Source: a virus (taxonomy: Duplodnaviria; Heunggongvirae; Uroviricota; Caudoviricetes). From it: a stretch of 64,000 bases of DNA. The translations under genes were made by a program, and so were the position numbers. Under the pieces are notes generated by a model. That model saw nothing but the letters and a program-made list of their open reading frames with translations. It ran no database searches and was not told the origin of the DNA. Location: the IMG/VR virus record IMGVR_UViG_2875703104_000004. The stretch is one strand, 5' to 3'. This document shows positions 45,606 to 45,896 of the stretch, piece after piece. Position 1 is the first letter of the stretch. Each line of letters starts with the position of its first letter.

Positions 45606-45699
45606 CCCGACCCGGGGGGGGTATCATCCGGCGTAAAAAACGATCGCTTTGGACACCGCGCCCCCTCTCACGCAGAGAAAAAATTCCCGTTTCAGGGCA

Positions 45700-45821
45700 G
45701 TTAACATGTTAACTGGCTGCCCGGGCATTTTTGCGGTTTTTATCTTTATTATTCAGTTTGTTGTGCGGAAAAAATGTTAACAGGCTTTTTCAGCAAATGT
45801 TAACCAGGCAGCAGTTAACAT
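45700..45821 (+). promoter_or_regulatory. Cluster of GTTAACAT/ATGTTAAC inverted repeats upstream of terS (candidate cos/terS-binding or operator region)
   Basis: Palindrome GTTAACATGTTAAC at 45700-45713; ATGTTAAC at 45774 and 45797; inverted pair AAATGTTAAC-n9-GTTAACATTT at 45794-45823. Confidence 0.45.
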
Positions 45822-45896
45822 TTGCGGCATGAGACGCCGGGGAAAAATGGGCTGAACCATACCCGGCTGAGTGCGTTCTGGACCCGGGAGGAGGCT

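Follow-up and report, generated by a model that had tools for sequence, protein, structure and literature searches.

Between the gene for an HNH endonuclease and terS, the gene for the small terminase subunit, a tailed-phage sequence of 64,000 nucleotides (Caudoviricetes, IMG/VR record IMGVR_UViG_2875703104_000004; the whole analysed stretch is called the window below) has an intergenic gap of 291 bp at 45606–45896. The gap holds a conserved block, predicted to be the nicking site (cosN) of a cohesive-end packaging site (cos), and on the terS side of this block an array of five copies of the 8-mer GTTAACAT. The original prediction, made from the letters of the window, read the repeats as a plausible terminase-binding site of a second, non-lambda packaging system associated with HNH and named an operator for a regulator as the alternative. 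From sequence comparisons we regard 45606–45896 as a two-part cos, consisting of cosN and an array equivalent to cosB, in which the five GTTAACAT copies are predicted recognition sites for the helix-turn-helix (HTH) of the small terminase protein, TerS; we give this reading a probability of roughly 0.65.

A repeat array between the HNH and terS genes

Exactly five copies of GTTAACAT occur on the two strands of the window, all inside 45700–45821 (Table 1). The whole-window expectation was 1.35, and a count of five was reached in 0 of 100 shuffles. By our own estimate, the chance that five matches all fall within 122 bp of 64 kb is ~5*(122/64000)^4, or roughly 7e-11. The last two copies form an inverted repeat whose arms, GCAAATGTTAAC at 45793–45804 and GTTAACATTTGC at 45814–45825, are 12 nt long and 100% complementary across a 9-nt spacer. 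Thus the five copies in both orientations, the palindrome among them and the position of the array between the two genes were as originally described, and so were the perfection and the spacer of the inverted repeat, but its arms are 12 nt long rather than 10 bp. A longer unit of ~13–14 nt, roughly (A/C)A(A/C)ATGTTAAC(T/A/C)G, is shared in one orientation. No match to the consensus of integration host factor (IHF), WATCAANNNNTTR, was found in 45606–45896 with at most one mismatch.

Table 1. Genes and cos elements of the window, with distances from the predicted cut
Feature	Position	Strand	Distance from cut	Remarks
YlcI/YnfO (DUF3950) gene	44998–45198	−		Divergent, just upstream of the HNH gene
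HNH endonuclease gene	45240–45605	+		Final gene before cos; Pfam PF01844, E=3.8e-7; RefSeq: HNH endonuclease
G8 run	45614–45621	+		Conserved element upstream of the cut, at the right end of virion DNA
cosN core block TGGACACCGCGCCCCCTCTCACGCAGAGAAAAAATTCCCG	45650–45689	+		Nearly invariant in 22 loci, ~15 genera
Predicted 10-nt 3' cohesive end CGCGCCCCCT	45657–45666	+		By homology to CGCCCCCCCT of Lys8385Vzw, 1 nt different
A-tract AAAAAATT	45678–45685	+	+12 to +19	Invariant in all relatives
Copies of GTTAACAT	45700–45707; 45706–45713; 45774–45781; 45797–45804; 45814–45821	+; −; −; −; +		Sites 1 to 5
Sites 1 and 2	45700–45713	.	+34 to +47	Overlapping copies forming the perfect 14-bp palindrome GTTAACATGTTAAC
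T-rich spacer with T5 tracts	45727–45762	+		Candidate DNA-bending element; partly kept in the island copy (TTTTT.TCTTTAT.ATTCA)
Site 3	45774–45781	−	GTTAAC core at +110	Reads ATGTTAAC on the + strand
Sites 4 and 5	45793–45825	.	Cores at +133, +148	Inverted repeat GCAAATGTTAAC-N9-GTTAACATTTGC
terS, small terminase	45897–46460	+		GTG start after GGGAGGAGG; Pfam PF03592, Terminase_2
Linker DNA AATGTTTATACCCCAGCGGTAAACA (relatives)	L004, L008–L023		~+246 to +268	terS codons ~69–76
terL, large terminase (ATPase and nuclease)	46457–48118	+		Pfam PF03354, PF20441
Prohead protease/major capsid fusion gene	48099–50120			Pfam PF05065, PF04586

The predicted cut lies beside the array

A cut site can be placed in the window by homology to a relative. 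Using PhageTerm on the induced Stx1 phage Lys8385Vzw, Zhang et al. described a cos phage with 3' cohesive ends, the 10-nt CGCCCCCCCT lying at the genome end (PMC7946995). The record of this phage, MT225100, agrees with the PhageTerm ends in that it ends with ...GGACACCGCCCCCCCT and starts with CTCACGCAGAG... (CTCACGCAGAGAAAAAATTCC...); its first 229 bases hold all five repeats and are followed by a terS 95% identical to that of the window. By this homology, the cuts in the window are predicted between 45666 and 45667 on the top strand and between 45656 and 45657 on the bottom strand. The predicted cleavage site is distinct from the repeats and, like them, lies inside the HNH–terS gap. The first repeat begins 34 bp downstream of the predicted cut, the array extends from +34 to +155 on its terS side, and terS starts at +231. 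The array therefore occupies the position that cosB has in phage lambda, on the side that the TerS of HK97 binds.

The cosN core is flanked by further conserved elements. A run of seven to nine G residues stands at the same relative place upstream in the Enterobacterales relatives, in an island of E. coli 042 and in Burkholderia-type phages, and downstream AGAAAAAATT is invariant at +10 to +19 in every relative. The A-tract at +12 to +19 is positionally similar to that of HK97, where TerS recognises one site, which contains an A-tract, at +15 to +29 (PMC11331095). The SfI/SfV cos, which we also compared, likewise has a C-rich 10-nt 3' overhang, but of another sequence, TGCCCGCCCC. Two record ends were tried as end-mapping evidence and rejected: phi330 is permuted and ends inside terS, and the record of Burkholderia vB_E264 begins 16 nt upstream of the core.

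The motif is conserved as DNA in relatives

A scan of one genome per species yielded 22 full-length TerS relatives (33–49% identity) from ~15 enterobacterial genera, including Atlantibacter, Kluyvera, Phytobacter, Kosakonia, Enterobacter, Serratia, Citrobacter, Rouxiella, Erwinia, Pantoea, Buttiauxella and Morganella. Individual loci are given L numbers here. Of 23 related loci, 21 have an HNH homologue immediately before the cos core, and nearly all 22 loci share the block G7-8 ... GTAAACATCGATCGC..TGGACACCGCGCCCCCT|CTCACGCACAGAAAAAATTCCCCTCTGGAGGGTGTAAAC-ATG-TTA-ACA-G. For example, the HNH–terS gap of Salmonella phage FSL SP-016 is only 106 bp long and aligns with window positions 45611–45713, and the terS ATG falls within GTAAAC-ATG-TTAAC. 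The palindrome GTTAACATGTTAAC of the window is homologous to this Shine-Dalgarno (SD) and start-codon region, since it aligns with GTAAAC-ATG-TTA-ACA, the terS start of FSL SP-016 and of L008–L029. Around the core of the relatives, GTAAAC or GTTAAC occurs at −34, +34, +42 and ~+262, at a density of 8.2 per kb in the cos region versus 0.69 per kb elsewhere in the same loci.

The motif also extends into terS itself. Where the start codon lies within the motif, codons 2–3 are TTA ACA in nearly every locus; in the three lineages with a displaced start (the window, Pantoea L024 and Morganella L026) they are CTG ACA. Extra GTTAAC/GTAAAC copies stand between the core and the displaced start in the window and in Pantoea L024, and upstream of the G-run and inside terS instead in Morganella L026. 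Moreover, the hypervariable linker of terS contains the conserved DNA AATGTTTATACCCCAGCGGTAAACA (peptide NVYTPAVN), in which GTA AAC is invariant in all 17 loci that have this DNA. This DNA is an inverted repeat, ATGTTTAT-N9-GTAAACA, with the architecture of ATGTTAAC-N9-GTTAACAT in the window (ATGTTWAY-N9-GTWAACA). The codon choice and the conserved linker DNA point to selection on DNA rather than on protein, and recognition sites appear to be embedded in the terS coding sequence, like the pac sites of some headful phages. In Morganella L026, nucleotides 166–201 of terS hold three GTTAAC copies 12 nt apart, encoding VN-xx-VN-xx-VN.

The E. coli/Stx lineage, to which the window belongs, has lost the −34 copy (GTAAAAAAC in the window) and has no such repeat in its longer terS linker; it has instead ~185 extra bp (45714–45896) with three more copies. 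More distantly, Burkholderia-type phages (L092/L093, which are vB_E264, PV072772; L115/L118) have the core CCCTCACGCGCAGAAAATTTCCCC, an upstream G-run and a recognisable TGTTAAT...TTTAACA pair around the terS start, so that this cos design is common to phages of Beta- and Gammaproteobacteria.

An island without terminase genes keeps the array

A second copy of the cos region lies in a 9.5-kb island of E. coli 042 between cspD/yljB and clpS (L090, NZ_CP042934.2 939312–948720; cos copy L088 1455–1680). The island encodes an integrase, an AlpA-like regulator, a YlcI/YnfO protein, an Icd-like protein, a primase-helicase, a ClpP-type protease/capsid fusion and a small protein, whereas HNH, terS and terL are absent. 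Its cos copy, at the island end, is 80% identical to the window region; the G-run is kept, the cosN core is identical, and the five repeats are all present with unchanged spacing. From +24 to +159, the island and the window are identical at 38 of 38 motif positions but at only 63 of the 99 others (64%; Fisher p=1.5e-6); site 3, for instance, is unchanged despite diverged flanks. The similarity stops directly after the last repeat.

An island that lacks packaging genes should retain whatever the terminase of a helper requires, and this one, whose type of cos is found in ~50 of 5426 E. coli genomes, is likely, by its gene content and cos, to be a satellite of BP-4795/2851-type phages. Phage-inducible chromosomal islands (PICIs) of the EcCICFT073 type carry a helper-type cos next to capsid genes (PMC6092414), and the 042 island resembles these and other cos-carrying satellites such as SaPIbov5 in having a helper-type cos beside a capsid gene at the island end (PMC6092414, PMC5052747). 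EcCICFT073 has a lambda/phi80-type cosN with a different cosB, whereas the 042 island has the cosN and the full GTTAACAT array of HNH-type phages. A homologous, Ccm-like relationship between the island and phage capsid proteins was rejected, as BLASTP gave no significant similarity between them.

The flanking motif changes with the type of terS

We next consider loci found through the core alone. An exact-match scan of IMG/VR with the cosN core returned more than 120 contigs, and architectures were drawn from the 80 loci listed. Among these, the E. coli architecture (repeats at +34, +42, +110, +133 and +148; terS at +231) dominates; others are a short form with the terS ATG at +41 and the terS-less island type (L148).

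The cosN core is also common to loci with an unrelated terS. Four of them (L108, L137, L140 and L143) keep the core and the upstream G-run, have a terL 49–53% identical to that of the window and, in L108 and L140, an upstream HNH match. Their TerS begins MA.RK..IDW.RIELEYLA..DSIREIADRHEISDTAIRKRA and has no detectable similarity to the TerS of the window; its N-terminal 90 residues have no Pfam match. In the cos region of all four loci GTWAAC is absent, and GCGAAC/GTTCGC stands instead at +39/40 and in a cluster from +208 to +245, within terS linker codons. Conversely, GCGAAC/GTTCGC is absent from those positions in all six Terminase_2 loci that were checked; the cos region of three lacks it altogether, and that of the other three has a single unrelated copy at ~+149. 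Across these loci the predicted nicking core stays the same, and the motif that flanks it goes with the type of terS.

In three further loci (L115, L134 and L146), all four TGTTAA(C/T/A) sites in 9–13 kb fall between +34 and +177. Downstream of the core, L134 and L146 have TTGTTAATG-type repeats at +34, +45, +116 and +125, and no open reading frame (ORF) of at least 60 aa was found in the 1.5 kb downstream of the array; these two may be further terS-less, satellite-like copies of cos with a different array layout.

TerS is predicted to carry a tethered HTH domain

The TerS of the window matches Pfam PF03592 over residues 2–57 (E=1.3e-8, above the gathering score). The N-terminal 50 residues (MLTxQKRKFALALMSGxNxTxAAIxAGYSxKTARxKGSQLAKDPEV), which make up most of the HTH (residues 1–56), are conserved across the family more strongly than any other part of TerS. 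In the AlphaFold model, a four-helix HTH at residues 1–56 (predicted local distance difference test score, pLDDT, >92) is followed by a disordered linker of ~55 residues (57–112) and a helical hairpin (115–145), which as modelled is typical of an oligomerisation core. HTH domains tethered in this way to a ring could reach sites of either orientation over ~120 bp.

Among terminase proteins, a PDB sequence search with TerS gave matches, all weak (E=0.2–0.8), only to the HTH chains of SF6 G1P (4zc3, 2cmp, 3zqp) and none to the HK97 small terminase gp1 at E<=1. The protein is thus not of the HK97/P27 type, with whose cos regions the original prediction suggested a comparison, but a Terminase_2 protein, matching PF03592 only, with an HTH like that of SF6 G1P.

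Prophage context and distribution

The phage is a BP-4795/2851-type lambdoid prophage integrated at ompW. The 2 kb searched (window 44500–46500) are 100% identical to E. coli chromosomes such as that of ABU 83972, whose annotated gene positions coincide with the window ORFs over 1–50000. In gene order, a microcin/F1C-fimbria island is followed by the lambdoid prophage, the single one in the annotated positions 1–50000, which lies beside an ompW fragment (17461–17583) and has its integrase at 17629. With one prophage in that part, the "second" packaging system of the original prediction found no support there. Genes for a Q-type antiterminator, a tRNA, holin, lysozyme and Rz precede the YlcI/YnfO, HNH and terminase genes. 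The YlcI/YnfO product, of which a family member is encoded by the 042 island as well, looks ribbon-helix-helix-like on our own reading of its sequence. The terL of the window is 49–87% identical to that of all loci with the same cosN core.

The HNH–terS region is widespread. It matches 94 phage records at 90–99% identity, among them BP-4795, 2851, 1717 and many Stx1a, Stx2a and Stx2c phages, and 1234–2063 of 5426 complete E. coli genomes, with up to 7–11 places in one genome. The intergenic region alone is 95–100% identical in most of more than 1200 E. coli genomes and its conservation is no lower than that of a 1.3-kb stretch extending into the flanking HNH and terS genes, for which identity is ~94% in most related phage records.

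Insertion sequences (IS) interrupt the region in some prophages. In O157 ompW prophages (L005, Stx2_14040 / PPompW, LC567818, 1546–3004), an IS110-family ISEc20 abuts the cos G-run at ~window 45618 and replaces the lysis and HNH genes; cosN, the array and terS/terL are kept, and these prophages lack an HNH of their own. The window prophage is the intact counterpart of these. In one genome, E. coli TB354 (L089, NZ_AP038814.1), an IS1 lies 55 bp ahead of terS and has removed cosN together with the entire array, but the SD and terS/terL remain. By its sequence this prophage looks as if it can no longer be packaged from its own cos.

Discussion

In the mechanism that we propose, TerS oligomers would bind the GTTAACAT sites on concatemeric DNA through their N-terminal HTH domains. 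Bound at the array, TerS would anchor the terminase beside cosN, confer specificity for the phage's own DNA and mark the end that enters the capsid first. It would recruit the large terminase protein, TerL, and HNH to the adjacent core at ~45650–45689, where staggered nicks by TerL, aided by HNH, would leave the 10-nt 3' overhang CGCGCCCCCT. Packaging would then run from the cut end towards terS and terL until the next cos terminates it. That TerS is the binder, in what stoichiometry it binds, and in which direction and order the events run are our inference. In HK97, the HNH protein gp74 stimulates cleavage at cos (PMC11331095).

A terminase-binding site in an HNH-associated cos, as originally proposed, is supported by the predicted cut site, the conservation of the motif at the DNA level, the terS-less satellite copy and the covariation with terS. 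Several points weigh on the other side. The cut position was transferred by homology from a single PhageTerm analysis, and the two cohesive sequences differ at one base; the relatives share ancestry, so that counts of conserved codons are not independent; and the covariation involves one alternative terS type, in four loci. For the G1P of SF6/SPP1, structurally the closest solved TerS, DNA binding in vitro has been weakly specific or non-specific (PMC9611059). Finally, the invariant A-tract at +12 to +19 could be the primary TerS site instead, by analogy with the single site of HK97.

This last point leads to an alternative in which the repeats are part of cos but are bound by another factor (a host nucleoid protein or response regulator, HNH, or another phage protein) that bends the DNA or organises the packaging complex, while TerS reads the A-tract block at +8 to +25 as in HK97. 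The invariant AGAAAAAATT speaks for such a division of labour, and candidates for the factor can be named: TGTTAA resembles the half-site of ArcA, and both the phage and the 042 island encode the YlcI/YnfO protein. Yet GTWAAC gives way to GCGAAC exactly where terS is unrelated, with no change in the A-tract core, in the family of terL or, where it was detected, in HNH; if a motif switches together with terS, a host factor or HNH is not expected to be its binder. The lack of an IHF consensus in the gap argues in the same direction, and for YlcI tblastn gave no homologue near HNH in 22 relatives, although that search was insensitive and missed the annotated YlcI/YnfO gene of the island. We consider this alternative unlikely. 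The operator of the original prediction, widened here to include a promoter element or an RNA structure that controls transcription or translation of terS/terL, is less probable still and is disfavoured. The repeats do lie upstream of terS, and in relatives, where the motif overlaps the SD and start of terS, a bound protein could autoregulate translation; there is also, on the minus strand, a sigma-70-like match that the motifs themselves make up, and an RNA fold slightly more stable than shuffles (z = −1.7). However, the 042 island keeps the full array with neither terS nor any other gene to regulate before clpS, and the arrays of L134 and L146 likewise have no ORF of at least 60 aa within 1.5 kb. 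By analogy with lambda, moreover, the late genes of a lambdoid phage would be transcribed by read-through from the late promoter that depends on Q. Searches for RNA elements gave 0 terminator-like sites and 0 Rfam matches at E<=1, and we rejected a known RNA family, a conserved RNA structure (z-scores of only −1.7 and −2.0, with predicted pairings that differ between the window and island copies) and an intrinsic terminator after HNH (the palindrome and T-run were not called, and the island does not keep the GC clamp that surrounds the palindrome).

It is very improbable that the three extra copies (45774–45821) are non-functional duplication relics of an ancestral terS 5' end (ATGTTAACAG...), left by an insertion of ~185 bp between the old and new starts. 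Such an origin would fit the homology of the window palindrome to the terS start region of relatives, the longer unit AAATGTTAAC(A/T)GG that the copies share and that resembles ATGTTAACAGCG, and the lack of conservation of the relic ORF. This ORF, which runs from the ancestral terS ATG at 45706 to 45780 and encodes a 24-aa hydrophobic peptide, MLTGCPGIFAVFIFIIQFVVRKKC, is probably no gene; its frame stops after 4 codons in the island. Against relics stand the identity of the region across the E. coli genomes, which at 95–100% compares with ~94% for the longer stretch in phage records, the full retention of the motifs beside spacers that are 64% identical in the diverged island copy, and equivalent multi-copy arrays in unrelated arrangements in L024, L026, L134, L146 and L115. 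Each of these alternatives is countered by the covariation and by the island without terS.

Read as a cos with candidate TerS sites, the region combines features of several known systems. In lambda, cosB (R3-I1-R2-R1) has gpNu1 sites in both orientations between cosN and terS, confers packaging specificity and marks the first-packaged end (PMC6092414). The window is similar in having several short repeats in both orientations, candidate TerS sites, between a predicted cosN and terS. Unlike lambda, it has a Terminase_2 TerS rather than Nu1, a predicted 10-nt 3' rather than a 12-nt 5' overhang, an HNH gene, no IHF (I1) consensus and an 8–14 bp GTTAACAT unit, a motif that in relatives overlaps the start and linker codons of terS. 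The likeness to HK97 (cos/gp1-gp2-gp74) extends over the HNH gene immediately upstream of cos, the predicted 10-nt 3' overhang, the TerL_ATPase and TerL_nuclease domains, the HK97-fold capsid with its prohead protease, a terS site downstream of the cut (a candidate here) and an A-tract near +12 to +29. However, HK97 TerS threads DNA through its channel and has one 15-bp site (PMC11331095), whereas a PF03592 TerS is here combined with five dispersed candidate repeats.

With the G1P of SPP1/SF6 the protein shares its Pfam family, the G1P-like HTH and a helical hairpin. In SPP1, multiple TerS contact points flank the TerL cut (PMC9611059), and in relatives of the window, motifs stand on either side of the cut, at −34 and +34. 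In contrast to the headful packaging of SPP1 with terminal redundancy, the relative Lys8385Vzw has precise cos 3' ends (PMC7946995), and no HNH partner gene of SPP1 is described in the parts of the literature that we consulted. The specific binding of SF6/SPP1 TerS in vitro is disputed, whereas the family of the window has a crisp, covarying 8-bp motif.

A search of the literature turned up no account of these repeats; all that has been published is the cohesive end of one relative. Most likely, the array is an ordinary kind of element, a cosB, that has gone undescribed in a very common phage family. Somewhat short of even odds, we suggest a more general reading, in which the cos of this widespread family, from E. 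coli and Salmonella to Burkholderia-type phages, is modular and consists of a near-invariant cosN cut by TerL and HNH plus an exchangeable, terS-specific "address". The address would be GTTAACAT for a Terminase_2 TerS and TGCGAAC for the other type, placed upstream of terS, on its start codon or in linker codons. On the same tentative reading, the E. coli/Stx lineage would have moved the address and multiplied it into a five-site intergenic array, and PICI-like satellites would copy cosN and address in order to be packaged. If true, this would provide a clean sequence-specific DNA target for a G1P-like TerS HTH; recognition in SF6/SPP1 has remained unclear (PMC9611059).

The region lends itself to studying how small terminases of the Terminase_2 type read DNA. 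A defined cosN and address would allow cross-packaged prophages and islands to be predicted and would help in the design of cos plasmids and transduction tools. The module is carried by many Stx1, Stx2a and Stx2c phages, and its cos determines what DNA can be moved by them and by defective prophages or satellites with the same cos, toxin genes included.

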